A DNA stretch of 44,810 nt, taken from the NCBI GenBank assembly GCA_964573855.1, contig CAZNKO010000002.1:1-44810 (forward strand), written 5' to 3'. Each line of letters begins with the position of its first letter. Within the stretch, counting starts at the first letter, position 1. The position numbers and the translations under genes were made by a program. This document shows, one piece after another, positions 1 through 30,418 of this stretch. The DNA comes from an uncultured Gammaproteobacteria bacterium. GTDB taxonomy: Bacteria > Patescibacteriota > Patescibacteriia > UBA9934 > GWF2-40-263. The notes under the pieces are model-generated. The model saw only the letters and a list, made by a program, of their open reading frames with translations. It ran no database searches and was not told where the DNA came from.

Positions 1-1005
1 CGACTCTACAAGCTCCTAACGGAATTTGGTGGCAGAAGTTAGATATTCCCCTTGAGGATTATCGTTCGAAGTTTGAATCCTTGGTGCGCGAGCAGGGGAT
101 CTGGCCGGAGAATTTTAACGAAAATGCAAACAATTCTTCCGGGGAATACCTCTGGGATGTGACCGATGTCCGCGAAAGCTATCAATCCTTCGACCACGCC
201 CGCGATCTTTTTTATTGCTTCATGTGTTTTCATGAGGCAGAGCGACTCGCGTTTTGCGGCGGTTCCCTCGTTTGCAACGACATGATCGGCTCCGTCGTTA
301 ACAGTCGATCTTCAAATTGCAGGTATTGTTATGCCATGGTCGGTTGCCAGAACATGGAATACTCCATGAATTGTTTTAACTGTGAAAATTGTTTTGGCTG
401 TATTGGTCTTCAGAACAAAAAGTTTCATATTTTTAATGTCGCGTATCCAGAGGATGAATATTGGAAGATGGTAGATGAATTGAAATGCGCCATGCTGGAG
501 CGTGGGGAATATGGGGAATCGTTCCCGACCCGTTTTTCCGCCTCTTATTTTTATGAATCAGGAGCGGTCGCGCTTTTCGGGTGCGGAAAGGAGGACGCCG
601 AACAGTTGGGCATTGTTGAGTATGATCCGAACATGAATGGGGCTTCTGGGTACATGGAGGTCGCGAAAGACGTCAAGCGAACGTCCGATGTTCCAGACGC
701 CATAGACGACATGTCCGTGGATGAGTGGGCAGGGGTGCCGATTTTTGATGCAGAAAAAAATAGACAATATTCCTATCTGAAGCCGGAACTTGAGTTTTAT
801 CATCAAAAGCGGATTGCTGCCCCGAACAAGCATTTTATTTACCCGGATTTATGAGCTGACACAGCAGATGAACTCTGCAATTTTTGTTGCAGAAAAATGT
901 TCAAAATGTTCAAAGGCCATTCGGGTTGGAAAATGCTTCGGATATCCGGAACGGACGATCTACTGCCGCCCGTGTTATTTGCAATATCTCGAGACACACA
1001 ATTAA
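1..1005 (+). pseudogene. Cys-rich ~575-aa paralog family, copy 1. The 5' end lies outside the window and the frame is broken by a 1-nt shift near 836-845.
   Basis: Frame 3 is open from nt 3 (..LDIPLEDYRSKFESLVREQGIWPENFN..). It is colinear with the C-terminal half of the full-length paralogs (MEYSMNCFNCENCFGCIGLQNKKFHIFN, KCAMLERGEYGE). It stops after ..NKHFIYPDL (TGA 852-854). The family C-terminus (CSKCSK..YCRPCYLQYLE) continues in the next frame (ORF 790..1005). Confidence 0.6.
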
Positions 1006-1013
1006 TTCTCCAT

Positions 1014-1040
1014 TCTCTAATTCGCGCGAATAGGAGAATA
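1014..1040 (+). promoter_or_regulatory. Copy 1 of 6 of a conserved upstream motif (TTCTCTA-TTCGCGCGAATAGGAGAATA), containing the 14-bp perfect palindrome TATTCGCGCGAATA (1019-1032)
   Basis: Direct comparison with 5152, 28441, 28843, 29149 and 29615. It lies 9 nt upstream of the ATG at 1049. Confidence 0.6.
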
Positions 1041-1048
1041 AGGAAATT

Positions 1049-2776
1049 ATGTCCAAAACACCGAAATTTGATGCGAAAGTAAAAGCCATCCTCGACGCCA
1101 CCAAACCCGGCGAGCGCACGTGCGCGCTCACGGGAGAGAAATGGAACATGACAGATGAAGAAATTGGGTGGTACAAAAAATTCAATGTCCCGCCGTCGAA
1201 GTTCCATCCGGAAATGCGCCGGCGATTATTGTTTGGATTTCCTTCGGGGGTCGCGATTTGGCGGAAGCCGCATATGACTACGAAAGAGCCAATCTTGAGT
1301 TTCGTGCATCCAGACAGTCCGTATCAAGTCGTGACAGATAAGGAATGGGCGGTTGGGGAATATCTTCGGGAAGGTCCGGAGCTCGACGCTTCGCGCCCAT
1401 TTTTTGATCAATTCGAGTCTCTCGCACACGCCGTTCCGGTTTCCGCTTTGCGCGCGGACCCCGCGGACGTGAATACGATCGGTGTCGATACCCTAAAGAT
1501 CGAGGATTCCCAAATGGTGTTCGGGTGCGCGGAAAACAAACGATGTTTTTATCTTTATACTTCGTATCAATGTGAGGATTGCGTGGATATTGCCAACACG
1601 CGACTCACCCAGGATTGTTACGCGATCAACCGATCCAAACAGCTTCATCAATGTCAGTTCGTTTTTGAATCTGCCCAATGCCAGCAAAGCGCGTTTCTCT
1701 TTGACTGCAAAAATCTTGATTATTGTTTCGGTGCAACAAACAAGGTCAACAAGAAATACTTGTGGTTCAATGAACAGCTCACGAAAGAGGAATGGGAAAA
1801 ACGCCGCGCCACGGTGGACCTCTCATCTCGCGCGGTACTCGAGGAATATTATAAGAGATTTTACGATCTTATTGCGAAGGCTGCGTGGCCGCCTTCTTAC
1901 ATCATTGGTTCCGAAGATTGCACGGGAGAATATCTTCAGGAGTCTGTGCGGTGCCATGATTCGTACTGGGTCAATCTAGGTGTGGATTTATATTCCTGCT
2001 TCATGGCCGTGGAGTTCCAGCAGAGCGCTTTTTCCATTTGGATCGGGTGGGGAAGTGACGTGTATTATACGTGCGACCATGTCGGCGGCCCGGTAAAATT
2101 TTGTTTCCGCACGTGGGACTGCACGGACATGGAGTACTCCATGGATTGCCGCAACTGTGAACACTGTTTCGGATGCGCGGGATTAAAGCGAAAAAAGTAC
2201 TGCATTTTCAATGTCCAATACACGCCGGAGGCGTACTGGAAGAAGCTGGATGAAATAAAATGTGCGATGTTGGATCGCGGCGAGTATGGCGAATTTTTCC
2301 CAGCAAAATTTTCCCAGAGCGGTTTCCAATTCTCGATGGGAGATTTGTTTGCTGAATATACACCCGAGGAATACCGTTTGTTTGCGGCCCCGAAATTTGA
2401 TCCGAATCGTGCCGCGGTGCACGCCTCCATGCAGGATGGCGAGGCAGCACTCACCACGGATACGCTTCCGGATCGTCTCGCGGACGCTTCAGAATCTCTG
2501 GTCGGCAAGCCGATTTTTGACAAGAAACTCGGGAGAAATTACAGCATCGCGCCCCTCGAGTGGGCGTTTTACCAGCGCCACAAGCTTGCCATCCCGAGCG
2601 AGCACTTCTTGAGCCGCCTCCGGAATATCGTCCGCACCTCAAACTCACCGGTCAAAATGGCCGCCTCTTGTTCCTCTTGCGGCACAGAAATTACTACTTA
2701 CAAAAACGCAACGTTCCCAAAGCGCAACCTCATGTGCCGCCCGTGCTATCTGAAATATCTTGAAAAAAACAATTAG
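1049..2776 (+). CDS. Cys-rich repeat protein of unknown function, paralog copy 2 (575 aa), with a C-terminal CxxC..CxxC zinc ribbon
   Basis: Long ORF with an ATG start and the motif upstream. Signature blocks: FDCKNLDYCFGATNKVNKKYLWFNEQLTKEEWEKRR, MEYSMDCRNCEHCFGCAGLKRKKYCIFNVQYT, CSSCG..CRPCYLKYLE. Homologous over its full length to 3413..5146 and 5187..6923. Confidence 0.85.
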   Translation: MSKTPKFDAKVKAILDATKPGERTCALTGEKWNMTDEEIGWYKKFNVPPSKFHPEMRRRLLFGFPSGVAIWRKPHMTTKEPILSFVHPDSPYQVVTDKEWAVGEYLREGPELDASRPFFDQFESLAHAVPVSALRADPADVNTIGVDTLKIEDSQMVFGCAENKRCFYLYTSYQCEDCVDIANTRLTQDCYAINRSKQLHQCQFVFESAQCQQSAFLFDCKNLDYCFGATNKVNKKYLWFNEQLTKEEWEKRRATVDLSSRAVLEEYYKRFYDLIAKAAWPPSYIIGSEDCTGEYLQESVRCHDSYWVNLGVDLYSCFMAVEFQQSAFSIWIGWGSDVYYTCDHVGGPVKFCFRTWDCTDMEYSMDCRNCEHCFGCAGLKRKKYCIFNVQYTPEAYWKKLDEIKCAMLDRGEYGEFFPAKFSQSGFQFSMGDLFAEYTPEEYRLFAAPKFDPNRAAVHASMQDGEAALTTDTLPDRLADASESLVGKPIFDKKLGRNYSIAPLEWAFYQRHKLAIPSEHFLSRLRNIVRTSNSPVKMAASCSSCGTEITTYKNATFPKRNLMCRPCYLKYLEKNN

Positions 2777-2795
2777 GTCTGCTAATTTGAGCTAT

Positions 2796-3029
2796 ATGAC
2801 GTATCCGCATATTTCTCGCGACCCAGGCATATTGGGCGGAAAACCAGTGATTGCCGACACGCGTATTTCAGTGGATATGATTTTGGAGTTCCTTTCTTCA
2901 GGCATGTCTGCGAAAGATATCGTGAAGCAGTATCCTCAATTAACCGAGGAATTTATCCGTGAGGCCTTGGCGTACGCGGCTACGGATATCCGGCGTTCCG
3001 AAATTGACTCGATCCGGCTCCCGAGGTAA
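2796..3029 (+). CDS. DUF433-family antitoxin-like protein
   Basis: The sequence MTYPHISRDPGILGGKPVIADTRISVDMILEFL..G.S...I...YP.LT.E.I..AL is the typical DUF433 signature. The ATG at 2796 lies just after the stop of the upstream gene. The ORF-track start at 2760 is a TTG inside the upstream gene. Confidence 0.75.
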   Translation: MTYPHISRDPGILGGKPVIADTRISVDMILEFLSSGMSAKDIVKQYPQLTEEFIREALAYAATDIRRSEIDSIRLPR

Positions 3030-3034
3030 ATCGT

Positions 3035-3406
3035 ATGCGTTTCCTCGCGGACGAAAACGTGGCCGCGGAGGTTGTGCATGCCCTTGCCGAAGCCGGACAC
3101 GATGTGCTTCGCGTTTTTGATGTCATGCCTGGGGCAAGCGATAAAGACGTGCTTCAGCGCGCCTATCAGGAGGCGCGTATTATTTTGACGCATGATCAGG
3201 ATTTCGGAAATGTGCTTCGCTACCCCTTGCATGCCCATCGCGGCATTCTGCTCATGCGATTCAAAGATCAGTCACCCGCAAATGTCATTCGTCATTTAAA
3301 TGCATTGATCGATGAGACGTTTGAGCAGAAGATCCAAAATCGTCTCGTGATTGTCCGTGAGGATCACGTTCGATTTTATTCAGGTGAATCCAATAGTCGA
3401 TCATAA
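3035..3406 (+). CDS. DUF5615/PIN-like (Mut7-C-like) putative toxin, partner of DUF433
   Basis: MRFLADENV...THDQDFG is typical of the PIN-like proteins encoded next to DUF433 genes. It starts 5 nt after the DUF433 stop. Confidence 0.7.
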   Translation: MRFLADENVAAEVVHALAEAGHDVLRVFDVMPGASDKDVLQRAYQEARIILTHDQDFGNVLRYPLHAHRGILLMRFKDQSPANVIRHLNALIDETFEQKIQNRLVIVREDHVRFYSGESNSRS

Positions 3407-3412
3407 TTCAGT

Positions 3413-5146
3413 ATGTCCAAAACTCCGAACTACGATGCAAAAATCAAAGCCATCCTCGACGCCACGCGGCCGGGGGAGCGGACGTGCGCGCTCACCGGTC
3501 AGAAATGGGAACTTACGGCCGGGGAGCTCGAATGGTGCTGGCGATTTCTCGTTCCTCCTTCAACGATCCATCCGTTCGTCCGGATGAAAATACTTTTTGC
3601 TTATAATTCGGCCCTTTCACTCTGGCGCAAGCCGCATGCGATCACGGGCGAACCTATCCTTTCTTATATTCATCCAGACAACCAAGTAAAGGTGGTAACA
3701 GATGCAGAGTGGATGAGTCTCGATCAATCTTCTCAAGGGCGGTCGGTGGATGTGAGCCAGCCGTTTTTTGATCAGTTGTATCAGCGTTACCTTGACACCA
3801 GCTTTCGCGCGCTCGCGACCCCCGGGGATTCCGTGAATACGATCGGATTTGGAATGCACAAGTGTCTCGATAGTTTCATGATTTTTGCTTCTTTGGATAT
3901 CGAACGTTCCTCATACGTGGAGGCCTCGACCTCTGTCAGGGATTCGGTTGATGTGACGAATTCCCTTGGTGGTATCGCGGAGAGTTCCAGTATTAATCGT
4001 TGTCGTTCTCTCTATAACTGTCATGTTGCGTTTGAGTGCCATGACTGTCTCAATTCCTGGTTTTTGTTTGATTGTCGAAATTGCGAGTACTGTTTCGGCG
4101 CGACGAATCAGAGGAACAAAAAGTACCTTTGGTTCAATGAGCAACTGACGAAAGAAGAATGGGAGCGGCGGCGAGAGGCCGTCGGCCTTTCGTCCTATGC
4201 GATTTTTGAACGCGAACGCAAACGTTTTTTCGATCTGGTTGCTGGATCCGTCTGGCCGGAAACGTTTAATATCGCCGCGGGCGCATCCACTGGGGAATAT
4301 CTCGAGGAAACCGTCCGTGTCCTGGAAGGATACCAATTGCAGAAAGTTACGGACTGCTTTCGTGTGTGGTTCGCGGTCGGCAGTTCAGATTGTGCCTATC
4401 AGACCGGTTCCGGATTCGGGTCGGAAATTTGGCAGACGAGCGGGGCCGCCTATTCCCAAAACGTAAAGTTCTCACACAATCTCACCAGATGCGAAGACGT
4501 TGAATACTGTGTGGCGTGCATGAACTGCTCCCATTGTTTTGGTTGCGTGAATTTGAATCGGAAACAGTATTGCATTTTGAACAAGCAGTATACGGAACAG
4601 GATTATTGGCGGACGTTGGACGATCTTAAATGCGTCATGCTGGAGCGCGGGGAATACGGTAAATCCGTTCCCGGTAAGATGAGCATTGTTGGTATGCCGT
4701 TTTCCGCCGCCGCACTACTGCTAGGAATCTCCAAAGAGGAGATTGAATTATTTGGCGGTGAAATCTATGACGCGAAACGCGGTATGTCGTATATGCCGGC
4801 CGAAGTCGACCCTGGTCACCGGTTAACGCCCGAGGCTCTCCCGGACCGTCTTGAGGACGCGACGGGGCTTGTGAATCGGGCGGTCTGGGATCCCGCGGCT
4901 GGCCGTTCGTATCCGATCATGCCGCGCGATTTTGATTTTGCGGAGCGTCATCATCTTCCCCTCCCGCGAAAGCATTTCCTCTCCCGATTGCAAGAGCTGA
5001 ATCTTCTTTCCAATGTTCCCGAGACGATAGATAGGGCGTGTGCTTCCTGCGGCAAGGGGATCAAAGTTTACCGGAATAACACGTTTTCCACGCGCCGGGT
5101 CTTGTGTGAGGCATGTTATCTCGCGTATCTTGAATCGCGCGGTTGA
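3413..5146 (+). CDS. Cys-rich repeat protein of unknown function, paralog copy 3 (577 aa)
   Basis: Full-length homolog of 1049..2776, with an identical block NKKYLWFNEQLTKEEWERRR, VEYCVACMNCSHCFGCVNLNRKQYCILNKQYT and a C-terminal CASCG..CEACYLAYLE. It starts 6 nt after the PIN-like stop and has no copy of the upstream motif. Confidence 0.85.
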   Translation: MSKTPNYDAKIKAILDATRPGERTCALTGQKWELTAGELEWCWRFLVPPSTIHPFVRMKILFAYNSALSLWRKPHAITGEPILSYIHPDNQVKVVTDAEWMSLDQSSQGRSVDVSQPFFDQLYQRYLDTSFRALATPGDSVNTIGFGMHKCLDSFMIFASLDIERSSYVEASTSVRDSVDVTNSLGGIAESSSINRCRSLYNCHVAFECHDCLNSWFLFDCRNCEYCFGATNQRNKKYLWFNEQLTKEEWERRREAVGLSSYAIFERERKRFFDLVAGSVWPETFNIAAGASTGEYLEETVRVLEGYQLQKVTDCFRVWFAVGSSDCAYQTGSGFGSEIWQTSGAAYSQNVKFSHNLTRCEDVEYCVACMNCSHCFGCVNLNRKQYCILNKQYTEQDYWRTLDDLKCVMLERGEYGKSVPGKMSIVGMPFSAAALLLGISKEEIELFGGEIYDAKRGMSYMPAEVDPGHRLTPEALPDRLEDATGLVNRAVWDPAAGRSYPIMPRDFDFAERHHLPLPRKHFLSRLQELNLLSNVPETIDRACASCGKGIKVYRNNTFSTRRVLCEACYLAYLESRG

Positions 5147-5151
5147 TCTCC

Positions 5152-5179
5152 ATCTCTAATTCGCGCGAATGGTAGAATA
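5152..5179 (+). promoter_or_regulatory. Upstream motif copy 2 of 6 (ATCTCTAATTCGCGCGAATGGTAGAATA). Palindrome ATTCGCGCGAAT at 5159-5170; TGgTAGAAT resembles an extended -10.
   Basis: Direct sequence comparison. It ends 8 nt before the ATG at 5187. Confidence 0.6.
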
Positions 5180-5186
5180 AGAAGAT

Positions 5187-6923
5187 ATGAGCAAAACCTC
5201 GAACTACGACGCAAAAGTAAAAGCCATCCTCGACGCCACGCACCCGGGGGAGCGGGTTTGCGCGCTCACGGGAGAGAAGTGGATGATGGATGAGCGCGAA
5301 ATTGGTTGGTACAAAAAATTTAACGTCCCGCCGTCGAAGTACAGTCCCTTTACGCGCATTAAAGCAATGGCCGCGTATTTTATTTTGTTTGACATCTGGT
5401 ACAACAAACATGCGGAAACAGGAAAACCGATCATCAGCAATATCCATCCCGCGACCGGTATCCGCGTCCTTCCGGATGAAGACTGGTTTGGACGAGACTT
5501 TTCTGACCTTTCTCTTGCTTTGGATCTCCAGAAACCATTTTTTCAACAATTGTACCGTTTAAGCCGGATGGTTCCCCGCGCGGCCGGATACAATCCGGTG
5601 AAGCCGGAACGTTCCATTGCGTTCATTTCTTTCGGAGACGAAGATAGTTATTTTGTTCTCGCGTGTCGTTCCAAGCGCAGCGTCTACTGCATCAACGGGT
5701 TCGATGTTGAGGATAGCGCGGAGTTGGATGCCGTAAATTCTGCCCGACGTTCTTATAACGTTATTTATTCCGATCGTGTCTATCAATGTAAATTCATCCG
5801 AGAGTCGCGGGACGTTCAATTCTCTTCCTTCTTGTTCGATTGTCGCAATTGCGAATATTGCTTTGGCGCCACGAACCAACGCAATAAAAAATATCTCTGG
5901 TTCAACGAGCAACTCTCAAGAGAGGAATGGGAACGTCGCGTTGCTGCCGTCGACCTTGCTTCGTTTGCCGTCCGTCAGGAGTATGAAAGGAAATTCCATG
6001 AACTGGTGAGCAAGGCTATTTGGCCTGAAAATTTTAACATCAACAGTCCCGGGTGTACGGGGGAGTATTTGACGGATTGCGTGGACGTGAAGGAGAGCTA
6101 CAATGCTCGGGGGGCGAGAGACGCGGAATACATTTGCTATTCCATTGGCCCATCGCACGATCTGTATTATGCAAGCGGAAATGCGGACGCCTCCGATTGT
6201 TATTACGGGGTCGGTTTTCACTATACGAGTCAAAGCAAATTTTCCCTTTCGATTACCCAACGGTGCCTCGGGGTGGAGTATTGCGAGAGCTGTTATGATT
6301 GTTCGTATTGTTTTGGACGTGTTGGATTACAAAGGAAGTCGTTTTGCATTCTGAACAAGCAATACACGGAGGCGGAGTATTGGAAGACCGTCGATGCCTT
6401 GAAGTGTGCGATGCTCGATCGGGGGGAATATGGTGAAGCGGCGCCAGCCTATTTTTCAACGCAACATTGGCCAGGATCAGGAGCCACGACGATCTATGAG
6501 GCAACGGAAGAGGACGCGCGAAGATTGCGTGCGGCGCAATTTCAGGCGTCGGACGACGACGCGGAAGGTCCACCAGTAGACCAAACAAAAATTCGCAACG
6601 TGGAAAGCATGCCAGACCGTGTGGCAAATGAGAGCATTGACAGTCTTGTTAGGGTTCCGTTTTTGGACCCAAAGATGGGTCGGCGGTTTTCGTATCTTAA
6701 ACCAGAGCTTGAGCTGTATCAGAAATTGGGGGTTGCCCCGCTGAGGCGGCATCCGACGGGATGCATCCATGATCTCTATCGCGAAATGAATCGGCCGATT
6801 TTTCACGAAACGACATGCGCGAAGTGCGGGAAGGGGATTCGGGTCGCGGATAATCAGGCGTATCCGAAGCGAATCATCTATTGTCAGCTCTGCTATTTGA
6901 GGTATCTTGAAGAGCGTGGATGA
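5187..6923 (+). CDS. Cys-rich repeat protein of unknown function, paralog copy 4 (578 aa)
   Basis: Full-length homolog of copies 2 and 3 (FDCRNCEYCFGATNQRNKKYLWFNEQLSREEWERR, VEYCESCYDCSYCFGRVGLQRKSFCILNKQYT, CAKCG..CQLCYLRYLE). Confidence 0.85.
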   Translation: MSKTSNYDAKVKAILDATHPGERVCALTGEKWMMDEREIGWYKKFNVPPSKYSPFTRIKAMAAYFILFDIWYNKHAETGKPIISNIHPATGIRVLPDEDWFGRDFSDLSLALDLQKPFFQQLYRLSRMVPRAAGYNPVKPERSIAFISFGDEDSYFVLACRSKRSVYCINGFDVEDSAELDAVNSARRSYNVIYSDRVYQCKFIRESRDVQFSSFLFDCRNCEYCFGATNQRNKKYLWFNEQLSREEWERRVAAVDLASFAVRQEYERKFHELVSKAIWPENFNINSPGCTGEYLTDCVDVKESYNARGARDAEYICYSIGPSHDLYYASGNADASDCYYGVGFHYTSQSKFSLSITQRCLGVEYCESCYDCSYCFGRVGLQRKSFCILNKQYTEAEYWKTVDALKCAMLDRGEYGEAAPAYFSTQHWPGSGATTIYEATEEDARRLRAAQFQASDDDAEGPPVDQTKIRNVESMPDRVANESIDSLVRVPFLDPKMGRRFSYLKPELELYQKLGVAPLRRHPTGCIHDLYREMNRPIFHETTCAKCGKGIRVADNQAYPKRIIYCQLCYLRYLEERG

Positions 6924-7813: not shown

Positions 7814-8290
7814 ATGTCTTGGAAAGAAGCCGTTCTCGTCTTTGGGGCCGAATATCTGGTGTATGTCCAAGCGCTTGCAACGCTGGTTTTTGCTTGGCTT
7901 CAGCGCCGGATCATTCGCGCGACGTTTTTTGCCTACGCGATCGTGAGCGGAGTCCTCGCTTTTGCCCTGTCTCGTCTCGCCGGGCTTCTCTACAACAATC
8001 CTCGGCCGTTTGTCGTTGAAGGGTTTACGCCGCCGATTCCGCACGCGCCGGATAACGGATTCCCATCGGATCACACGCTTCTTGCCGCTTGGCTCGCAGC
8101 GCTTGTGATGCCGTATGACCGGCGGCTCGGAACGATCCTCGCGATCGGCGCGCTTTTGGTCGGATTCTTTCGAGTCGCGGCCGGCGTCCATCACATGGTT
8201 GATATCATCGGATCCATCGTGATTGTGACTGTCTCGGCTCTTTCTACCTTCTACTTTCTACCTTCTACCCGCCGTCTATGGCAGAAATGA
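7814..8290 (+). CDS. PAP2-superfamily phosphatase (membrane protein, BcrC/undecaprenyl-diphosphatase-like)
   Basis: PAP2 motifs NNPRPF, PSDHT and RVAAGVHHMVD, plus hydrophobic segments. Confidence 0.75.
   Translation: MSWKEAVLVFGAEYLVYVQALATLVFAWLQRRIIRATFFAYAIVSGVLAFALSRLAGLLYNNPRPFVVEGFTPPIPHAPDNGFPSDHTLLAAWLAALVMPYDRRLGTILAIGALLVGFFRVAAGVHHMVDIIGSIVIVTVSALSTFYFLPSTRRLWQK
8242..8269 (+). repeat. Heptanucleotide tandem array (TTCTACC/TTCTACT) x4
   Basis: ttctacc ttctact ttctacc ttctacc. It lies in the 3' tail of the PAP2 gene, immediately upstream of the HD gene start at 8278. Confidence 0.8.
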
Positions 8291-9630
8291 TCGAAGTTCG
8301 CGATCCGATCCATCGGCGCATTCCCTTTGACGAATTTGAGCGACGGGTGATTGATCACCCGTTTTTTCAGCGCTTGCGTTTCATCTCCCAGCTTTCTTTC
8401 TTGATGTCCTACGTCTACCCGGGCGGCGTGCATGACCGATTTTCGCACGGTCTCGGAGCGATGCATGTCGCTGGACGCTTGTTCGGGCGACTTCTCGCGA
8501 GCTCACCGCTTCTTTCCTCCAGATTTTCTCCGGAAGAAATTGAAGCCCTCCGCCGCCGCATGCGGCTTGCGGGGTTGCTCCACGACATAGGCCATGGCCC
8601 ATTCTCCCACGCGTCCGAGACGATTTTTCCGAAATTTCGCGATCTTCCGATGGATTGGTCGTGGTGGAACCCTTCGACTCCGGCCGGTTATCCCCTGAGC
8701 AACGTCGAAGGGCTAACCGGCCTCCGCTCAGGGAATAATAGACAGTCTAAGCATGAAGATTACAGCGTGCTTTTGATCCAAACGCTCGCGAAGGAAGGCG
8801 TGCTTGCCGAAGATCTTGCCCAAGACGTGGCGTCGCTTATTCACGGAGATGTCGTGCCGTCCGCGACATTTACGGGGTTGGAAAGACAAGCGCCGACTCT
8901 CCAAAAAATTTTGAAATCCCTCGTCTCGGGCGAAGTAGATTGCGACCGGATGGATTATCTTCTGCGTGACAGCTATTACTGCGGCGTCGCCTATGGCACG
9001 TTCGATCTCGATTGGCTCATTTCCAGTCTCGGCCTTGCAGAACAAGACGGGAAGTTTCTTCTCACGCTTTCGGAAAACGGCGTGCGTGCCTTTGAGGACA
9101 CGCTCCTCGCGCGCTACCACATGATCGATCAGGTTTATTTCCACAAAACCAAAGCCGGCTTTACGCATTACCTTGAGGAGGCGATTCGGACAAAGGAAGC
9201 GGATCTCACCATTCCGACCGATCCCTACGCCTATGCAGGCCTTCGGGACGGGCAGGTGATCGAGAAACTTTTCGCGGCGGCGAAAGACGAAAAGAATTAC
9301 TGGTCGCACCATTTGATGCGGCGGATTCCGGCGAAGCGGATTTTGCGGTTCCAGACCGCGAAGGCGGAAGATCGAGAGACATTAAAAAAGCTCGAAGAGA
9401 TTTGTCAAAAGAACAATATCCGTTTTTTTACCCACGCCGCGTCAAAGGAATTAACATTTCTCGGGGAAGGATCAAGCGCAGACAGCATTCAGGTTGCCAA
9501 GAAAACCATCGACGGTGTTCGCTATGTGCCGGTGTTTCAGTACTCGGATCTTCTTCAAAAATATCACGAGAAACTTCAGTTCACGGATTTTTTTGTGCTC
9601 CGCGAGGACGCAGAAAAATTTGAAAACTAG
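8278..9630 (+). CDS. HD-domain phosphohydrolase (COG1078/SAMHD1-like dNTP triphosphohydrolase family)
   Basis: HD motifs FSHGLG and LLHDIGHGPFSH, plus GEVDCDRMDYLLRDSYYCGV. It overlaps the preceding gene by 13 nt. Confidence 0.8.
   Translation: MAEMIEVRDPIHRRIPFDEFERRVIDHPFFQRLRFISQLSFLMSYVYPGGVHDRFSHGLGAMHVAGRLFGRLLASSPLLSSRFSPEEIEALRRRMRLAGLLHDIGHGPFSHASETIFPKFRDLPMDWSWWNPSTPAGYPLSNVEGLTGLRSGNNRQSKHEDYSVLLIQTLAKEGVLAEDLAQDVASLIHGDVVPSATFTGLERQAPTLQKILKSLVSGEVDCDRMDYLLRDSYYCGVAYGTFDLDWLISSLGLAEQDGKFLLTLSENGVRAFEDTLLARYHMIDQVYFHKTKAGFTHYLEEAIRTKEADLTIPTDPYAYAGLRDGQVIEKLFAAAKDEKNYWSHHLMRRIPAKRILRFQTAKAEDRETLKKLEEICQKNNIRFFTHAASKELTFLGEGSSADSIQVAKKTIDGVRYVPVFQYSDLLQKYHEKLQFTDFFVLREDAEKFEN
8670..8733 (+). 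repeat. Long (64-bp) type-A palindromic element inserted in-frame in the HD gene (PSTPAGYPLSNVEGLTGLRSG)
   Basis: It has the same termini as the short copies (CCCTTCGAC...GCTCAGGG). Internal inverted pairs: CCCTTCGAC/GTCGAAGGG, CCGGTTA/TAACCGG, CCCTGAGC/GCTCAGGG. Confidence 0.75.
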
Positions 9631-14597: not shown

Positions 14598-14633
14598 ATG
14601 TAATATTTGTAGAAAGTAGAACCTTCTACCCTT

Positions 14634-23100: not shown

Positions 23101-23826
23101 ATGGAAAATATTCTCCTCCCATCCTCGATCCGTTTTGAACCCGGGACCCGCCCGAACGAGGGCCTGATGGTCATTGAGCCTTGTTTCCACGGGTACGGTA
23201 CCACGCTTGGAAACGCCATTCGGCGCGTGCTGTTGTCGTCCCTTCCGGGCGCCGCGGTCACGGCCGTCAAGATCAAGGGGGTGACGCACGATTTTCAGGC
23301 CATGGACAACGTAAAAGAAGACGTCTTGGAAATCATTTTGAATTTGAAGACTCTCCGGCTTAAAGTGTTCAGCGAGGAGCCGGTGAAGCTCACGCTCAAA
23401 GTGACAGGGGAGAAGACCGTGAAAGCCGGGGACATTGAGCCGAATGCGGAAGTGGAGATTGTGAATCCGGAACTCAAGATCGCGACCCTGACGGACCCGA
23501 AGGCAACGCTCGAGATGGAACTCACGGTCGCCCGCGGTCGCGGATACAAGCCGACCGAGGAGCGTCTCAAGGAAAACAATGAACTCGGCGTCATCGCGAT
23601 CGATTCTTTGTACTCGCCGGTTCGAAACGTGGGCTACCGTGTCGAAAACACGCGCGTCGGGGAGATCACGAACTACGATAAACTCCTCATGACGATTGAA
23701 ACCGATGGCACCATCACACCTGAGGAGGCGGTAAAAGAGGCTGCGAAGGTTTTGATTGACCACTTCTCGCTTTTTCTGCAGCCGTCCGCCCCCGCAGAAG
23801 TGCCGGCCGAAGCTGCGGCAGAATAA
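23101..23826 (+). CDS. rpoA: DNA-directed RNA polymerase alpha subunit, N-terminal domain only (241 aa)
   Basis: GYG.TLGNA.RRVLLSS.PGAAVT.VKI.GV.H.F, RGRGY and VENTRVG...YDKL. The ORF ends after a short Ala/Pro/Glu tail. Confidence 0.9.
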   Translation: MENILLPSSIRFEPGTRPNEGLMVIEPCFHGYGTTLGNAIRRVLLSSLPGAAVTAVKIKGVTHDFQAMDNVKEDVLEIILNLKTLRLKVFSEEPVKLTLKVTGEKTVKAGDIEPNAEVEIVNPELKIATLTDPKATLEMELTVARGRGYKPTEERLKENNELGVIAIDSLYSPVRNVGYRVENTRVGEITNYDKLLMTIETDGTITPEEAVKEAAKVLIDHFSLFLQPSAPAEVPAEAAAE

Positions 23827-24945: not shown

Positions 24946-25014
24946 TTCTCCCCCTTTTTCCGCCAGAGGCGGACCAGCCTCTGGCTGGCAAGGGGGAGTT
25001 AGAGGGGGTTACCG
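24946..25014. repeat. Intergenic copy of the type-B palindromic element
   Basis: TTCTCCCCCTTTTTCCGCCAGAGGCGGACCAGCCTCTGGCTGGCAAGGGGGAGTTAGAGGGGGTTACCG. Compare 11157..11226 inside mnmA. Confidence 0.75.
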
Positions 25015-25018
25015 CAAA

Positions 25019-25038
25019 CCGCCCACCCGGGCGGTTTT
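25019..25038 (+). terminator. Likely intrinsic terminator of the ribosomal-protein operon
   Basis: CCGCCC-accc-GGGCGG followed by TTTT. Confidence 0.55.
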
Positions 25039-25109
25039 AGTTTTGAAATGTGGATAAAAATTCTTGACAGATCACCGGAAATCTGATTGAATAGATCATA
25101 ACAAAGTTG

Positions 25110-25140
25110 AAATACAACTCCCCCGCAGGGAGTTGTATTT
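25110..25140. other. Perfect 13-bp stem / 5-nt loop hairpin at the left edge of the accessory island
   Basis: AAATACAACTCCC ccgca GGGAGTTGTATTT. No U-tract follows on either strand. Confidence 0.5.
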
Positions 25141-25222
25141 GTTAGGGTTTAATTAATCGACGGTCTGTTATATGATTGTGGAATCTCGTAAAGATTTTAG
25201 GTACCATTTGGCGGGAGAAGAT

Positions 25223-25978
25223 ATGAAAAAGTTGAAATATACTAAGGATTTTTTAAACAGGATTATTTGCGGTAATGCCGTAGATGTGATGAAACAGATA
25301 CCGAACGGATCTGTCGATTTGGTAATTACTTCGCCACCTTACAATCTGAAAAATTCCACCGGCAATGGTATGAAAGATGGCCGTGGCGGAAAATGGGCAA
25401 ATGCCGCTCTGCAAAATGGCTATACGCACCATAGTGATTGCATGCCGCACGATGAATATGTGAGCTGGCAGAGGGATTGCCTCAATGAAATGATGCGTGT
25501 TATTCCGGAAGATGGCGCGATTTTTTACAACCACAAATGGCGGGTGCAAGGTGGTTTATTGCAAGACCGGCAAGATATTGTGAATGAATTTCCCGTTCGT
25601 CAGATTATTATTTGGAGACGGAAAGGCGGCCTTAACTTCAATCCAGGGTATTTCTTACCCACTTATGAAGTGATTTATCTTATCGCCAAGCCGAAATTTA
25701 AATTAACATCGAAAGCCAACGCATACGGCGATATTTGGGATTTTACACAAGAGATGAATAATGAACATCCAGCTGCCTTTCCGGTAGACTTGATTGACAG
25801 AATCGTCTCGGCTACAGACGCTAAAATCATTTTGGACCCATTTATGGGCTCCGGTACAACGGCAATTTCTGCGATAAATTTCAAGCGAGATTATATCGGG
25901 ATTGATATTTCGCCTGAGTACTGCGAAATGGCTCGGAAAAGGATCAAACAACATCAATCTCAATCTAAACTTTGGTAG
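25223..25978 (+). CDS. Type II DNA methyltransferase, beta-class amino-methyltransferase (SPPY motif; N4-cytosine type likely)
   Basis: Motif IV DLVITSPPYN precedes motif I ILDPFMGSGTT, which is the beta-class order. ATG 25223 is preceded by GGGAGAAG. Confidence 0.85.
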   Translation: MKKLKYTKDFLNRIICGNAVDVMKQIPNGSVDLVITSPPYNLKNSTGNGMKDGRGGKWANAALQNGYTHHSDCMPHDEYVSWQRDCLNEMMRVIPEDGAIFYNHKWRVQGGLLQDRQDIVNEFPVRQIIIWRRKGGLNFNPGYFLPTYEVIYLIAKPKFKLTSKANAYGDIWDFTQEMNNEHPAAFPVDLIDRIVSATDAKIILDPFMGSGTTAISAINFKRDYIGIDISPEYCEMARKRIKQHQSQSKLW

Positions 25979-25982
25979 TCTT

Positions 25983-26780
25983 GTGGAAAAAAAACCTGTT
26001 ATTTATACAAAACCGGAGCTCATCGCGAAACTCAAAGAGATTTCGATGATGGGATTTGTACCGAATGCGCGTCGTGGAAACGCGGGAGGTATCGGCAACA
26101 CGCTTGAGGACCTTCTTGGTATCGAGGAAAATAATTTGCCGATACCGAACGCCGCGGAATGGGAACTAAAAACACAACGAATCAACACAATGTCTCTCAC
26201 AACGCTTTTTCACATGGAGCCATCCCCGCGCGCCGTTGGGTTTGTGCCGCAAGTATTTTTACCCAAATATAGTTGGTCACACGAGGAAGCTGGGCACAGA
26301 TACCCAAAGAGTGAGATGAGCTTTCGGCAGACGATCCATGGCCGATCACGGAGTGATCGCGGTTTTATGGTTGTGATTGACCGTAAGGCGCAGAAGATTT
26401 TGGTTTCATTTGATGCAGGAAGTGTTGATATTCGACATAAGGCATGGCTTGAATCCGTCAAAAAGCGTGTGGGACTTGGCGAACTTAACCCGCAACCCTA
26501 TTGGGGTTTTGATGATTTGGAACATAAAGCTGGAACAAAACTTCTCAATACTTTCTATGTTCAAGCTGATGTGAAAGTTGAACGGAGAAAAGAATCCTAT
26601 CATTACAAAAAAGTAATGATGTTGCAAAAATTCAGCTTTGATGTATTTTTGAAAGCGTTGGAGGAGGGAAAAATTTTGGTGGACTTCGATGCTCGCACCG
26701 GACACAACCACGGCACAAAATTCCGCATGCGGCAGGATTGTTTGCCGATGTTGTATGAAAAAGCAACCAGTGTCATATAA
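25983..26780 (+). CDS. Type II restriction endonuclease, MvaI/BcnI family
   Basis: Colinear with my recollection of BcnI: ..ELIAKLKEI..GFV, LEDLLGIEENN..IPNAAEWELKTQR...SLTTLFH, and C-terminal ILVDFDARTG.NHGTKFRMR...LP.LY. The GTG at 25983 is 5 nt after the methyltransferase stop. Confidence 0.7.
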   Translation: MEKKPVIYTKPELIAKLKEISMMGFVPNARRGNAGGIGNTLEDLLGIEENNLPIPNAAEWELKTQRINTMSLTTLFHMEPSPRAVGFVPQVFLPKYSWSHEEAGHRYPKSEMSFRQTIHGRSRSDRGFMVVIDRKAQKILVSFDAGSVDIRHKAWLESVKKRVGLGELNPQPYWGFDDLEHKAGTKLLNTFYVQADVKVERRKESYHYKKVMMLQKFSFDVFLKALEEGKILVDFDARTGHNHGTKFRMRQDCLPMLYEKATSVI

Positions 26781-26806
26781 AAGTCAGATAAATAATTTAT
26801 ATCCAT

Positions 26807-26841
26807 GTCAAAAAATGCCTTAAAATAAGGCATTTTTTGAC
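26807..26841. terminator. Bidirectional intrinsic terminator
   Basis: GTCAAAAAATGCCTT aaaat AAGGCATTTTTTGAC: a perfect 15-bp stem with A/T tracts on both sides. Confidence 0.8.
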
Positions 26842-26966
26842 TCTTAACTTTTTAACGAGTTTGTTTATTCTATAACTACCTCGACAGTAAATGGCCTCTT
26901 GCATTGTATTTTTAGGTGAAAAACGTTATGATATTTAATAAAGTAATAAATTAAGCATTAAATCGT

Positions 26967-27320
26967 ATGGACAAAAACGCCGAAATAATACTCAAAATTG
27001 AGGTCCTACTTGGACACCTTAAACAATCATTGGGGACAAAGACTTCTTCTGAAAAGAAGCATGGAGCGAAAGGATTGGATGGGATAAGCCGGATAAATTT
27101 TTTAGGCTTAACCAAGGAGATTTTTGATTTAGTTCAGGAGGGCTACTTCAAAGAACCGAGAACCATTTCAGAAATTAAAAAAAAATTGCATCAAAGAGCA
27201 GTGAATAAGCCCACAACATCTCTAATGAGACCCTTGCGTCTGCTCATACGCAAAAGAATTATTGAGCGCGAGAAACCCGACGGAAAAGGTCATTACAAAT
27301 ATTTTCAAGTAAATCAATAA
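26967..27320 (+). CDS. Small putative winged-helix protein, paralog 1 of 3 (117 aa)
   Basis: The C-terminal half (F.LVQEGYF.EPRTISEIKKKL....VNKPTTSLMRPLRLLIRKRIIEREKPDGKGHYKYFQV) aligns with 27322..27672 and 27685..27939. Confidence 0.55.
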   Translation: MDKNAEIILKIEVLLGHLKQSLGTKTSSEKKHGAKGLDGISRINFLGLTKEIFDLVQEGYFKEPRTISEIKKKLHQRAVNKPTTSLMRPLRLLIRKRIIEREKPDGKGHYKYFQVNQ

Positions 27321-27321
27321 T

Positions 27322-27672
27322 ATGAAAAAAGACCCACAAAAAATCGCCGCACAAATTATGGAACTTGTATCAGAACTTGTCACACTCGTGGGTGTACCCA
27401 TAGTTCATAGGTCAGCAAAGCCGCACAAATCACCTGCGAGTGAGAAAAGAGATATGTCCGGCGCCACTGGAGGTATTCGTTGGTTGGTTGAGGAAGGAAA
27501 GCTGGATTCACCAGAACAGTTATCCGAAATTATGGAATTTTTGCGGCAAGAAGGCAGACACTATTCTCGACCAACCATCTCGATGGGGTTATTGAACTTG
27601 GTGCGCGAAAGGGTTTTGACGCGATTCCACGACAAAGGAGATAAAAATTGGAAATACGTTATTCGAAAATAG
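27322..27672 (+). CDS. Small putative winged-helix protein, paralog 2 of 3 (116 aa)
   Basis: IRWLVEEGKLDSPEQLSEIMEFLRQEGRHYSRPTISMGLLNLVRERVLTRFHDKGDKNWKYVIRK. It starts 1 nt after the paralog 1 stop. Confidence 0.55.
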   Translation: MKKDPQKIAAQIMELVSELVTLVGVPIVHRSAKPHKSPASEKRDMSGATGGIRWLVEEGKLDSPEQLSEIMEFLRQEGRHYSRPTISMGLLNLVRERVLTRFHDKGDKNWKYVIRK

Positions 27673-27684
27673 TTATAACGAATT

Positions 27685-27939
27685 ATGTCGGCAAAAAGTC
27701 TGAAAGACAAGGCAAGCCAGCTCTCGCTTCAAGGCGGCAGTAAACACGAATTGATACAAAAGCTCATTGTCAACGGATTTTTTGACACACCCAAAATGAC
27801 AGGTGAGCTTATTTTGGAGGTTTGTCAAACTTTCGGAAAGAGGTTGCGATCAAATGAGATACAAACTTACATGAAAAAGTTCATGGAGGCGGCCATTATA
27901 CGGGCTGTTCACGATAAGCAGAGCAGGGGTAATTTTTGA
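27685..27939 (+). CDS. Small putative winged-helix protein, paralog 3 of 3. It ends at a TGA that is in-frame with the next ORF.
   Basis: LIQKLIVNGFFDTPKMTGELILEVCQTFGKRLRSNEIQTYMKKFMEAAIIRAVHDKQSRGNF*. The stop falls where paralogs 1 and 2 have Y/W. Confidence 0.5.
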   Translation: MSAKSLKDKASQLSLQGGSKHELIQKLIVNGFFDTPKMTGELILEVCQTFGKRLRSNEIQTYMKKFMEAAIIRAVHDKQSRGNF

Positions 27940-27951
27940 ATACTAGCCAGT

Positions 27952-28428
27952 ATGGATAAATCGAAAGCGGCACAGCTTATTGGCAAAAGCAAGAAAGTTC
28001 AAGAAATAGAGCACGACCTTTTTTCAGATGGCCTGCTCAAAAAATTTGGAAAGGACTTTGGTGTTGAGTTTACTGATTTACAATACAATTTCGATAGAAG
28101 CGGAACGTGTACGGCATTTCTTCTGCGGAAGATTCTGGAGAAGCTGATTTATCTTGCTTTTGCCAAGCACGGTGTTGGATCAAAATTAGAGGATAAGACA
28201 CGGGCTGGTCGTCTAGTTGGTCTCGAATCCATGATGAGCATTGCCGTTTCGGAAAAGATTAGCGGTGTGCCATTTTTGACCTCCAAAACGGCAAAAGAAA
28301 TTCAAGGCATTAAATTTTTAGGAGACGCGGCTGCACATAATCCACTAACCAACGTAGAGATGAGGACTATCATACCGCAAATGCCTTTCATTATTACCGC
28401 ATTTGAAGAAGTGGCAAAGAAGATGTAA
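27952..28428 (+). CDS. DUF4145-like protein (158 aa). It may be the C-terminal part of a fusion with 27685..27939.
   Basis: IQGIKFLGDAAAHNP resembles the R/K-x2-G-N/D-x-A-A-H signature of DUF4145. It shares a reading frame with the upstream ORF, separated by TGA plus four sense codons. Confidence 0.45.
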   Translation: MDKSKAAQLIGKSKKVQEIEHDLFSDGLLKKFGKDFGVEFTDLQYNFDRSGTCTAFLLRKILEKLIYLAFAKHGVGSKLEDKTRAGRLVGLESMMSIAVSEKISGVPFLTSKTAKEIQGIKFLGDAAAHNPLTNVEMRTIIPQMPFIITAFEEVAKKM

Positions 28429-28440
28429 TTTATAAAGGTA

Positions 28441-28468
28441 TTCTCTAATTCGCGCGAATGGTAGAATA
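28441..28468 (+). promoter_or_regulatory. Upstream motif copy 3 of 6 (TTCTCTAATTCGCGCGAATGGTAGAATA)
   Basis: Matches 5153..5179 over 27 nt (TCTCTAATTCGCGCGAATGGTAGAATA). Palindrome at 28448-28459. It ends 20 nt before the ATG at 28489. Confidence 0.6.
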
Positions 28469-28488
28469 GTTACGGATGCGCATTTATT

Positions 28489-28836: not shown

Positions 28837-28842
28837 GGCATA

Positions 28843-28870
28843 TTCTCTAATTCGCGCGAATGGTGGAATA
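28843..28870 (+). promoter_or_regulatory. Upstream motif copy 4 of 6 (TTCTCTAATTCGCGCGAATGGTGGAATA)
   Basis: Palindrome at 28850-28861. It ends 30 nt before the ATG at 28901. Confidence 0.6.
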
Positions 28871-28900
28871 GTTGGCCGGGTTGTAGTAGTCTTGAAGGAT

Positions 28901-29170
28901 ATGAAAGAGAAGGAAATGGAGCGGGTCCTCAAGGCCCTGGCCAATCGACGGCGTCTCGCCATTGTGAGATATTTGAAACGCACCAGAGAGGCGACGGTGG
29001 GGGATATCGCGGACGAGATTAGGCTTTCGTTCAAAGCGACGTCGAAACATCTCGGCGTCCTTTATGCCGCAGATATCGTGGATCGGGAACAGCGAAGCTT
29101 GCAGATGTGGTATCGTCTCGTCCCCAATCTTCATCCCGTTGCAAAACATATCTCTAATTCGCTCGAATAG
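28901..29170 (+). CDS. ArsR/SmtB-family winged-helix transcriptional regulator (89 aa, no Cys)
   Basis: LKALANRRRLAIVRYLKRTREATVGDIADEIRLSFKATSKHLGVLYAADIVDREQRSLQMWYRL is the canonical ArsR HTH_5 pattern. ATG 28901 is preceded by GAAGGA. The ORF-track start at 28814 overlaps the upstream gene and the motif. Confidence 0.8.
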   Translation: MKEKEMERVLKALANRRRLAIVRYLKRTREATVGDIADEIRLSFKATSKHLGVLYAADIVDREQRSLQMWYRLVPNLHPVAKHISNSLE

Positions 29171-29177
29171 GCGAATA
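29149..29177 (+). promoter_or_regulatory. Upstream motif copy 5 of 6 (TATCTCTAATTCGCTCGAATAGGCGAATA). It overlaps the last codons of the ArsR-family gene.
   Basis: The palindrome has one mismatch (ATTCGCTCGAAT). It ends 13 nt before the ATG at 29191. Confidence 0.55.
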
Positions 29178-29190
29178 GTTCGAGTGTCCT

Positions 29191-29583
29191 ATGTCCTTCC
29201 GTGGTGTCATCATTGAAGAAAGTTTGAAAAATAATAACATTCTTCAAGACGTAAAAATTTTGAAGACCAAGATTGAAAAGGTAACGGATGAGCACAAGAC
29301 TCCATGGCTGAAACAATGGACCTTGCATTCTGTGGAGATATCAGATGAGAGGGTAGACGAAGTGGCGAAAGAATTAAGCGGAGTTATCAATGATCAACCG
29401 AGCTCTTGGTATGCTGACTTTAAGAACGAAAATTTCCGCTACATCATTTACCCTGGTAAAATTTTTAAAATACATCGCGCGAATAACCAAGAATACCTTG
29501 CTGCGACCGAGTACGGTATTTCTCTTGGCATCCCGTCGTATCAGGTCGATTTCGTCCCTTATATTAAACAATGGGAACGATAG
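29191..29583 (+). CDS. Hypothetical protein (130 aa)
   Basis: ATG-initiated ORF preceded by the motif. No family was recognised. Confidence 0.5.
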   Translation: MSFRGVIIEESLKNNNILQDVKILKTKIEKVTDEHKTPWLKQWTLHSVEISDERVDEVAKELSGVINDQPSSWYADFKNENFRYIIYPGKIFKIHRANNQEYLAATEYGISLGIPSYQVDFVPYIKQWER

Positions 29584-29614
29584 CCATTGATTTTTGTATC
29601 CACACTCTTCTACC

Positions 29615-29642
29615 TTCTCTAATTCGCTCGAATAGGCGAATA
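29615..29642 (+). promoter_or_regulatory. Upstream motif copy 6 of 6 (TTCTCTAATTCGCTCGAATAGGCGAATA)
   Basis: Matches copy 5 over its last 27 nt (TCTCTAATTCGCTCGAATAGGCGAATA). It ends only 2 nt before the ATG at 29645. Confidence 0.55.
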
Positions 29643-29644
29643 GT

Positions 29645-30418
29645 ATGTCCGAGTATTACACGCCGCAGAGGACGAAGAATTTGTATGATCCCCGTCGACA
29701 TGGCTCGGGGCAGGCGGCCACGGAGCCGTTTAAGGTGTCGCGGTCGAAGATTGATCTCTTTCTCGAATGCCCGCGGTGTTTTTATTTTGACCGCCGGCTC
29801 GGGGTCGGGCGGCCGCCCGGGTTTCCGTTTGCGTTGAACTCGGCAGTGGACCATCTTTTGAAGCTCGAATTCGACATCCATCGGGCGAACGGCACTCAGC
29901 ATCCATTGATCAAAAAGTACGGCGTGGATGCGCGTCCGGTACCGCACAAAGATCTGAACAAATGGCGCGAAAATTTTACAGGTGTTCAGTATCTCCACAA
30001 GCCGACAAATTTTTTGGTGACAGGCGCGATTGATGACCTGTGGCAGAATTCGAAAAAGGAATATATCGTCGTGGATTACAAGGCGACGGCCAAGGATGAG
30101 GAGATCACGGAGTTGAATAAGGATTGGCATGAAGGATACAAACGGCAGATGGAGGTGTATCAGTGGCTCCTGCGCCAGAATGGCTACAAGGTATCGGACA
30201 TGGGGTATTTCGTGTACTGCAACGGGAAGACGGACCGCAAGGCGTTCGACGGCAAGCTTGAATTCGACGTGACGCTCATTGCATACGCGGGCGATGATGC
30301 GTGGGTGGATAAGACGCTCGAGAAGGCGCACAAGTGTTTGAATGGCGATAAGATTCCGAAAGCGGGTAAGGATTGCGACTACTGCAGTTACGTCGAGACG
30401 CGAGACAAATACGTATAG
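29645..30418 (+). CDS. PD-(D/E)XK nuclease, Cas4/RecB-like, with putative Fe-S cysteines
   Basis: N-terminal SRSKIDLFLECPRCFYF, then IDDL...EYIVVDYKA (D..D/E-x-K), QMEVYQWLL (QxxxY) and C-terminal C..(13 aa)..CDYC. Confidence 0.7.
   Translation: MSEYYTPQRTKNLYDPRRHGSGQAATEPFKVSRSKIDLFLECPRCFYFDRRLGVGRPPGFPFALNSAVDHLLKLEFDIHRANGTQHPLIKKYGVDARPVPHKDLNKWRENFTGVQYLHKPTNFLVTGAIDDLWQNSKKEYIVVDYKATAKDEEITELNKDWHEGYKRQMEVYQWLLRQNGYKVSDMGYFVYCNGKTDRKAFDGKLEFDVTLIAYAGDDAWVDKTLEKAHKCLNGDKIPKAGKDCDYCSYVETRDKYV

Follow-up and report, generated by a model that had tools for sequence, protein, structure and literature searches.

The 44,810-bp stretch of bacterial DNA analysed here (contig CAZNKO010000002.1, assembly GCA_964573855.1), referred to below as the window, carries six copies of a short palindromic motif, two of them ahead of members of an array of cysteine-rich (Cys-rich) paralogues and four ahead of unrelated genes about 23 kb away. 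The question raised by this arrangement is what the motif does and which protein recognises it. The six copies are probably, with an estimated probability of about 0.7, operators of the ArsR/SmtB-family protein encoded at 28901..29170, which would be an autorepressor of a non-metal, ArsR/HlyU-like kind. In about 80 sampled genomes of Patescibacteria the predicted pair of regulator and site is found again with hardly any change. What can be observed directly in the DNA, namely the sites, the direction in which they point, how far they are conserved and how they are coupled to the regulator gene, is described first.

The window was searched with the query TCTCTAATTCGCNCGAATRGNRGAATA, allowing up to three mismatches, and 100 shuffled versions served as the null. 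Exactly six matches were obtained, all on the plus strand, and none in shuffled sequence; they start at 1014, 5153, 28442, 28844, 29151 and 29616 and have in common the form TCTCTAATTCGC[G/T]CGAAT..GAATA. The first-pass annotation of this DNA had listed six plus-strand copies, which agrees with the present count and strand; five of its six starts are too low by 1-2 nt, an optional leading base having been included. No weaker copies (up to 4 mismatches in 17) were found elsewhere in the window, and the 12-mer core gave 14 strand-matches against 1.7 expected. The 12-bp core, earlier described as a perfect palindrome, is the perfect palindrome ATTCGCGCGAAT in four of the six copies and ATTCGCTCGAAT in the other two; the string 'TATTCGCGCGAATA' given earlier for copy 1 has to be replaced by the actual letters TAATTCGCGCGAATAG. 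The copies at 5153 and 28442 were correctly described as identical over 27 nt, and no similarity among the copies was found outside the motif. Each copy lies just upstream of a start codon; counted from motif position 28, the annotated ATG is reached after 7, 6, 19, 29, 12 and 1 nt in coordinate order, so that the position relative to genes stands and the range becomes 1-29 nt instead of 2-30 nt. The sites and the regulator gene are arranged as follows.

1014..1041, plus strand: predicted operator copy 1, TCTCTAATTCGCGCGAATAGGAGAATAA; ATG 9 nt past the GAGAAT arm
5153..5180, plus strand: predicted operator copy 2; gene-proximal arm TGGTAGAAT at 5170-5178
28442..28469, plus strand: predicted operator copy 3; gene-proximal arm TGGTAGAAT at 28459-28467
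28844..28871, plus strand: predicted operator copy 4, the predicted autoregulation site, upstream of the regulator gene; arm TGGTGGAAT at 28861-28869
28901..29170, plus strand: ArsR/SmtB-family winged-helix regulator, 89 aa, no Cys; predicted cognate repressor
29151..29178, plus strand: predicted operator copy 5, overlapping the 3' end of the regulator gene (..ISNSLE*) and heading the next gene
29616..29643, plus strand: predicted operator copy 6; annotated ATG 1 nt past the site

The copy at 1014 almost fills the 43-nt gap between Cys-rich copies 1 and 2, and that at 5153 almost fills the 40-nt gap between tandem Cys-rich paralogues. The last codons of the regulator gene, together with its stop codon, fall within operator copy 5 (29151).

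The occurrence of the motif outside the window was established by an exact scan with TCTCTAATTCGCNCGAAT (the left half plus the core), using one genome per species. At least 119 stretches from these representative genomes contained a match, and 120 sequences among the matches listed formed a motif-anchored set. An ArsR orthologue was present in 37 of these 120 loci. In the usual layout one site lies 30-100 nt upstream of the orthologue and the offset of a second one is constant at +260; in most orthologues the TAA stop codon is the TAA of TCTCTAA, and in the window and a few relatives the stop is read in another frame, which gives ..ISNS[L/R]E*. Since this first set had been chosen by the motif, the test was redone with loci found through the protein alone, namely the best 80 of 279 relatives, with a site threshold of at most 4 mismatches in 17. 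In these protein-anchored loci the upstream site (TTCTCTAATTCG-CG-CGAAT..) was present in 80 of 82 orthologues, 40 of them with zero mismatches, and the 3'-end site, which often holds the stop codon, in 69 of 83. In random 145-nt windows from the same loci the best match mostly had 6-9 mismatches, most often 8. No other gene family occurred next to the motif in more than 6 of 80 loci, antisense artefacts of the ArsR gene aside.

The conservation extends to the presumed contact between protein and DNA, in that the recognition helix LSFKATSKHL is nearly invariant and likewise the inner half-site ATTCG. Divergent ArsR paralogues have variant palindromes of their own on both flanks: the paralogue in locus L179 (415-687) is accompanied by the palindrome CATTGTACAATTCCATAGAATTGTACAATG, paired with a change of K49 to N in the recognition helix, and the one in L078 by CATAGGCTAATTCGTACGAATTAGCCTATG. 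This suggests duplicated regulator-operator pairs whose specificity may have changed. Comparative genomics customarily recognises a regulator and its site by the combination of autoregulatory placement, exclusivity and operators specific to each paralogue. On this evidence the ArsR-family protein 28901..29170 is strongly supported as the predicted regulator of the motif. A second divergent ArsR-like paralogue with its own variant palindrome was observed in some genomes (L179, L078 and L047).

The conserved unit, read from the flanks of the matches, comprises about 30 bp, (t)ATTCTCTAATTCG-CG-CGAATnnnnGAATA(g), and forms an imperfect 12-2-12 to 14-2-14 palindrome. Inverted repeats of the 12-2-12 type at promoters are binding sites of the ArsR/SmtB family (PMC8790569). 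A perfect palindrome, TATTCTCTAATTCGCGCGAATTAGAGAATA, occurs in ten loci, some of them with predicted starts of open reading frames (ORFs) on either side. Most motif-bearing records are named as Patescibacteria or as candidate phyla within it. Among the matches listed, the labels include Zambryskibacteria, Sungbacteria, Giovannonibacteria, Nomurabacteria, Kaiserbacteria, Liptonbacteria, Harrisonbacteria and Doudnabacteria; Candidatus Saccharibacteria is the label of many others, a small number have different labels or plain 'bacterium', and a few matches to TCTCTAATTCGCNCGAAT are chance occurrences in unrelated bacteria. The motif is present in sequence contexts of low and of high guanine-plus-cytosine (GC) content alike. 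Viral contigs gave just two matches, which are considered to be due to chance because they are identical to each other and the right arm is missing from both.

The protein 28901..29170 is assigned to its family by several independent models. It matched Pfam HTH_5 with 36.3 bits (cut-off 22), HTH_20 with 34.6 (cut-off 27) and NCBIfam NF033788 with 65.7 (cut-off 55). The profile of its orthologues retrieved HlyU among solved structures with an E-value of 3.6e-14, and also Lmo1102, CzrA and NolR. The AlphaFold2 model, with a predicted local distance difference test score (pLDDT) of 88.2, showed the order a1-a2-a3-a4-b1-b2-a5 as in the ArsR/SmtB fold (helices 2-13, 16-28, 33-40, 44-56 and 79-87, strands 60-65 and 68-73), and Foldseek gave template-modelling (TM) scores of 0.78-0.84 to HlyU, CzrA, SqrR, NolR, PagR and CadC. 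The columns E7, K11, A14, N15, R17, R18, V33, I40, S43, T47, S48, K49, H50, L51, L54, Q64 and Y71 are invariant. More than 1,300 sequence clusters match the regulator at E-values up to 1e-8, all of them with generic names. The metal or metalloid sites sought (a3N CxC; a5 D/H-x-H...H-x-x-E/H) are absent, the window protein having no Cys and a5 not being conserved, and because of the lack of Cys and of conserved a3N/a5 ligands the regulator was grouped with the non-metal members of the family.

It was compared with two groups of characterised proteins. The small winged-helix protein of the window has the same fold as the ArsR/SmtB autorepressors SmtB, CzrA, ZiaR and AzuR, for which an imperfect 12-2-12 repeat likewise overlaps the promoters of the regulator's own gene and of the target genes. 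It differs from them in having neither a3N/a5 metal ligands nor Cys, so that it is not recognisable as a metal sensor; in its half-site, ATTCG/CGAAT as against the TGAACA type; in a second operator that overlaps the regulator's own stop codon; and in targets that are not metal transporters. The closest matches are HlyU of Vibrio (3.6e-14), NolR of Sinorhizobium and PagR of Bacillus anthracis, with TM scores of 0.8-0.83. These proteins are likewise short, lack a metal site and bind AT-rich palindromes, binding being predicted in the present case. The identity of the window protein to them is merely 22-30%; unlike them, it belongs to a system in Patescibacteria that heads predicted leaderless genes, and whereas HlyU is an activator or anti-silencer of virulence genes, many operators here overlap -10 or -35 elements.

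The palindromic site is nevertheless directional and is used asymmetrically. For 141 non-palindromic sites a gene start in the same direction was found within 200 nt in 77 cases and a divergent gene start in 16; the orientation is therefore non-random, in support of the regulatory meaning that had been proposed over a randomly dispersed repeat. The same asymmetry appeared in 79 protein-selected upstream sites aligned on the symmetric core, an anchoring by which the search bias was removed. The gene-distal arm reads TCTCTA in 48 of the 79, the gene-proximal arm is most often GGTAGA (24 of 79), and the outer ATA is conserved at 84-95% in the proximal arm and at 44-65% at the mirror positions of the distal arm.

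The relation of the site to the promoter was derived from 103 non-redundant upstream regions of orthologues, with start codons placed by alignment. Where the site lies within 12 nt of the ATG, a TAnAAT arm is present in nine of ten cases, mostly as TGGTAGAAT (Fisher p = 1.6e-4), and the distance from arm to ATG in these ten orthologues is exactly 6 nt in seven and 8-9 nt in three. In the other 93 regions a TAnnnT sequence ends 5-9 nt before the ATG in 55, exactly 6 nt before it in 30, compared with a rate of 8% at random positions. An extended TG precedes 35 of the 64 identifiable -10 elements, and a Shine-Dalgarno-like sequence was seen in just 3 of the 103 regions. An extended -10 arm followed after 6-9 nt by the ATG would mean a leaderless mRNA, and the genes of the regulator orthologues do look leaderless from these features. 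The centres of the operators cluster at -20.5, -31.5, -40.5 and -43.5. At -20.5 the operator would hold the -10 element itself, and at -31.5, -40.5 and -43.5 it would cover the spacer or the -35 region, a placement that fits repression by occlusion.

Within the window, the complete TGnTAnAAT pattern occurs at 5170-5178 and 28459-28467 and a partial one at 28861-28869; it is unmatched at 1014, 29151 and 29616. In the copy at 5153 the TGGTAGAAT arm agrees with the extended -10 consensus, and the ATG lies 8 nt beyond it. The earlier suggestion that the 3' part of the motif resembles an extended -10 element is therefore apt for the TGGTAGAAT copies, with the correction that this same 3' part is the second arm of a longer palindrome. 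A scan for two-hexamer sigma-70 promoters found none at any of the six copies, and this absence fits promoters that lack a -35 element.

The following mechanism would account for these observations. A small set of genes, changeable in composition, would have the operator built into its promoters in one of two arrangements. In one, the proximal arm would itself be the extended -10 element (TGGTAGAAT), with the start codon 6-9 nt on and a leaderless mRNA, and the bound protein would cover about -32 to -5. In the other, a separate -10 element would lie downstream and the operator would cover about -55 to -25. A dimer, or two dimers, on the site would block RNA polymerase, and the protein would in this way repress its own gene, the next gene downstream and a small number of further ones, which in this genome would be the two Cys-rich paralogues, the CxxC protein, the 130-aa protein and the PD-(D/E)XK nuclease. 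Repression would last until a non-metal signal frees the protein from the site. Binding, repression, leaderless start sites and the non-metal signal are the parts of this scheme that we infer from sequence and from predicted structure.

Several observations weigh against autorepression as described. No sensor site is recognisable in the regulator that would account for the release of repression. The copies at 1014, 29151 and 29616 have GAGAAT or GCGAAT arms, which make poor -10 elements, and at 29616 the annotated ATG stands just 3 nt beyond the arm. The target set has no coherent function, and none of 79 loci with Cys-rich homologues from elsewhere, retrieved via the protein family, has a site within 200 nt upstream. 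The taxonomy of the foreign loci consists of record-title labels alone, and their gene calls are crude (first ATG, ORFs of at least 50-60 aa). Furthermore, the closest solved relative, HlyU, is an activator, and 22 of the 64 operators with an identifiable -10 element are centred at -40.5 to -44.5.

The last two points lead to the alternative that the same protein occupies the site as an activator or anti-silencer in the manner of HlyU, which we consider unlikely overall and a genuine alternative where operators are centred near -41 to -44. Centres near -40.5 to -44.5 are typical of class II activators, many of the target promoters lack a -35 element, and HlyU is the top match in sequence and in structure. 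However, nine operators centred at -20.5 overlap the -10 element and the spacer, which is incompatible with activation, the spacing between site and -10 element is not fixed, and RpoA here shows no alpha C-terminal domain (alpha-CTD), the usual contact of activators; moreover, most members of the ArsR family are autorepressors (PMC8790569). It is also true that co-localisation alone cannot tell a regulator from a target, so that the palindrome might be bound by a different regulator for which the ArsR-like gene is just the most conserved target. This is very improbable, as conservation near the sites is confined to this one gene family, each divergent paralogue is bordered on either side by a variant palindrome of its own and the 12-2-12 architecture suits the ArsR family.

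Explanations that dispense with an operator fare worse. A palindrome can pair in RNA, copy 1 folds at -12.3 kcal/mol (z = -2.5) and the copy at the 3' end of the regulator gene is transcribed, which would allow a hairpin in the 5' leader or a terminator or attenuator after the regulator gene. Such a role has very little to commend it, since the six copies fold differently and without a common structure (z-scores from -0.04 to -2.5), complementarity is usually broken at arm positions 19-21, specific bases and not pairing are conserved, there is no U-tract, no Rfam match reached the gathering threshold anywhere in the window, and the inferred start sites would lie downstream of most copies. TCTCTA and GAATAG are 16 nt apart, like -35 and -10 hexamers, and the proximal arm can be an extended -10 element; the motif could on these grounds be the general promoter of the lineage or one of an alternative sigma factor. 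That is highly improbable because of its rarity: it heads just 6 of about 45-50 window genes, and no sites were found in 198 kb from 79 related-genome loci. The canonical promoter TTGACA-17-TACAAT is present at infA, upstream of 20781, as had been reported, the distance from motif to -10 element or ATG is not constant, the centres lying between -20.5 and positions beyond -100, and perfectly palindromic versions exist. The earlier view that the motif is not simply the generic promoter of this lineage is thus upheld, a large fraction of the genes being without it. Finally, the row of four short unrelated genes at the margin of a low-GC island, all of them headed by the palindrome, is reminiscent of a selfish dispersed repeat or a recombination site, such as a repetitive extragenic palindrome (REP), a miniature inverted-repeat transposable element (MITE) or an integron attC site. 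REP-type repeats are usually confined to a species or genus, and the present sequence is near-identical in loci from about 80 genomes with many candidate-phylum labels; its orientation is strongly tied to genes, the copies share nothing beyond the motif, the GTTRRRY core is lacking, the annotated ORFs of the window yielded no integrase, transposase or recombinase domain, and viral contigs are free of the motif except for the two chance matches. A repeat of this kind is scarcely credible.

If the motif is taken as the operator of the ArsR-like autorepressor, its predicted targets in the window are the following genes.

1049..2776, plus strand: Cys-rich paralogue 2, 575 aa, no Pfam or NCBIfam match
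5187..6923, plus strand: Cys-rich paralogue 4, 578 aa
28489..28836, plus strand: 115-aa protein with CxxC pairs, all family matches below threshold
29191..29583, plus strand: 130-aa protein, no family assigned
29645..30418, plus strand: PD-(D/E)XK (Cas4/RecB-like) nuclease, 257 aa

Homologues of the nuclease also follow the same motif in L087 and L161. Across genomes, 256 distinct downstream ORFs were collected, of which the regulator itself accounts for 85. Recurrent targets are the Cys-rich family of about 575 aa (10), Mur ligases (5), DUF167 (4-5), methylpurine-DNA glycosylase (3-4), PD-(D/E)XK nucleases (3) and TspO (2-4); FemAB, acylphosphatase, TfoX_N, NUDIX, GIY-YIG (one of them a UvrC) and RNase_T exonuclease occur twice each, and one DinB gene is represented by two overlapping ORF calls in L138. 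Of the downstream ORFs, 116 are singletons, so that a target is in most cases confined to a single genome; the regulon would therefore be small and plastic. The target set has a weak flavour of DNA repair and cell envelope, repair genes making up about 15 of 147 ORFs. The Cys-rich family as a conserved target was rejected, none of the 79 independently sampled members having a site; their best matches, with 6-9 mismatches, are the same as those of controls inside genes. The Cys-rich link thus appears specific to this genome, and of the regulon formerly proposed to join the Cys-rich array to the cassettes of the island, the regulon is retained and the Cys-rich link is not extended beyond this genome. 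In L138, a DinB (Pol IV) ORF lies downstream of the regulator at 1826-3055, and within it a copy of the motif is read in frame as ..HSLIRANRR..; this copy may be either an internal operator or the mark of a split gene.

The presence of repair genes raised an SOS-like reading, which was down-weighted because a LexA network is already described for the phylum; the LexA/SOS regulon of Patescibacteria was reportedly outlined by comparative genomics by Sanchez-Osuna, Barbe and Erill in 2017 (Environ Microbiol 19:3465, as cited in PMC8565304). The two systems have in common the phylum and some repair targets (here methylpurine glycosylase, DinB, UvrC, PD-(D/E)XK and exonuclease), and they differ in regulator family and motif, the repair flavour of the present one being weak.

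Full-text literature searches on the sequence and on regulation in Patescibacteria, or the candidate phyla radiation, found no description of the sequence or of the circuit, which seems to be undescribed so far. In kind it would be of an already known type, an ArsR-family autorepressor with a 12-2-12 operator. Unusual features are the 30-bp site, near-invariant across loci with many candidate-phylum labels and in low- and high-GC contexts, the stop codon of the regulator inside the next operator and, as predicted, the fusion of the operator with an extended -10 element for leaderless genes. Patescibacteria constitute a large, mostly uncultured share of bacterial diversity and have tiny genomes with few regulators. 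It is tempting to speculate that the ArsR-like protein and its near-invariant 30-bp site are the main global transcription switch of the sampled lineages, a portable promoter-plus-operator for leaderless genes, although this is doubtful. If it were true, genes would join the regulon simply by gaining a 30-bp module with an extended -10 element in one arm, and targets would therefore differ between genomes and cassettes would pile up by the regulator. It would also fit an RNA polymerase without alpha-CTD that relies on repression more than on classical activation. A regulator-operator pair that is predictable from sequence in about 80 sampled genomes offers a concrete handle for laboratory work, and it puts a large uncharacterised Cys-rich family under the same predicted control as several genes of DNA repair and of the cell envelope. 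Since the regulator genes appear leaderless, the pair could guide the annotation of start codons.

The remainder of the window consists largely of ordinary chromosomal genes, namely mnmA, era, murJ, alaS, infA, rpoA, fmt, priA, polysaccharide synthesis genes and those of ribosomal proteins S11, S4, L17, L13 and S9, and the closest protein relatives of the window genes carry the labels Candidatus Uhrbacteria or Patescibacteria. The rpoA gene (23101-23826), followed directly by the L17 gene at 23830, encodes 241 aa in which the N-terminal dimerisation and insert domains were found by Pfam; the alpha-CTD gave no Pfam match even at E-values up to 10. With such a polymerase, classical activation and the use of UP elements would be limited. 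A low-GC island at 25000-29600 (41-43% as against 53-58%) starts with a type II restriction-modification pair, an N6/N4 DNA methylase (25172..25978) and an endonuclease of the MvaI/BcnI family (25902..26780), after which come five small ORFs without family matches and then the motif-headed cassettes.

In the Cys-rich array, paralogue 1 (3-1005) appears frameshifted: its ORF 3..854 aligns to about residues 264-522 of the family, and the conserved C-terminus (..CRPCYLQYLE..) runs on out of frame with it, in ORF 790..1005. Of the paralogues, copy 3 is the one that lacks the motif, and a pair of DUF433 (2760..3029) and DUF5615/PIN-like (3035..3406) genes, a putative toxin-antitoxin system, lies between copies 2 and 3. 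A heptad repeat, TTCTACY, occurs in three to four tandem copies at 8242-8268, just upstream of an HD-domain gene (8278..9630), and in inverted orientation at 14609-14621, upstream of the glycosyltransferase gene at 14634. Four matches were found against 0.02 expected, a similar 'cttctacc' stands ahead of the motif copy at 29616, and the heptads may represent a second regulatory motif.

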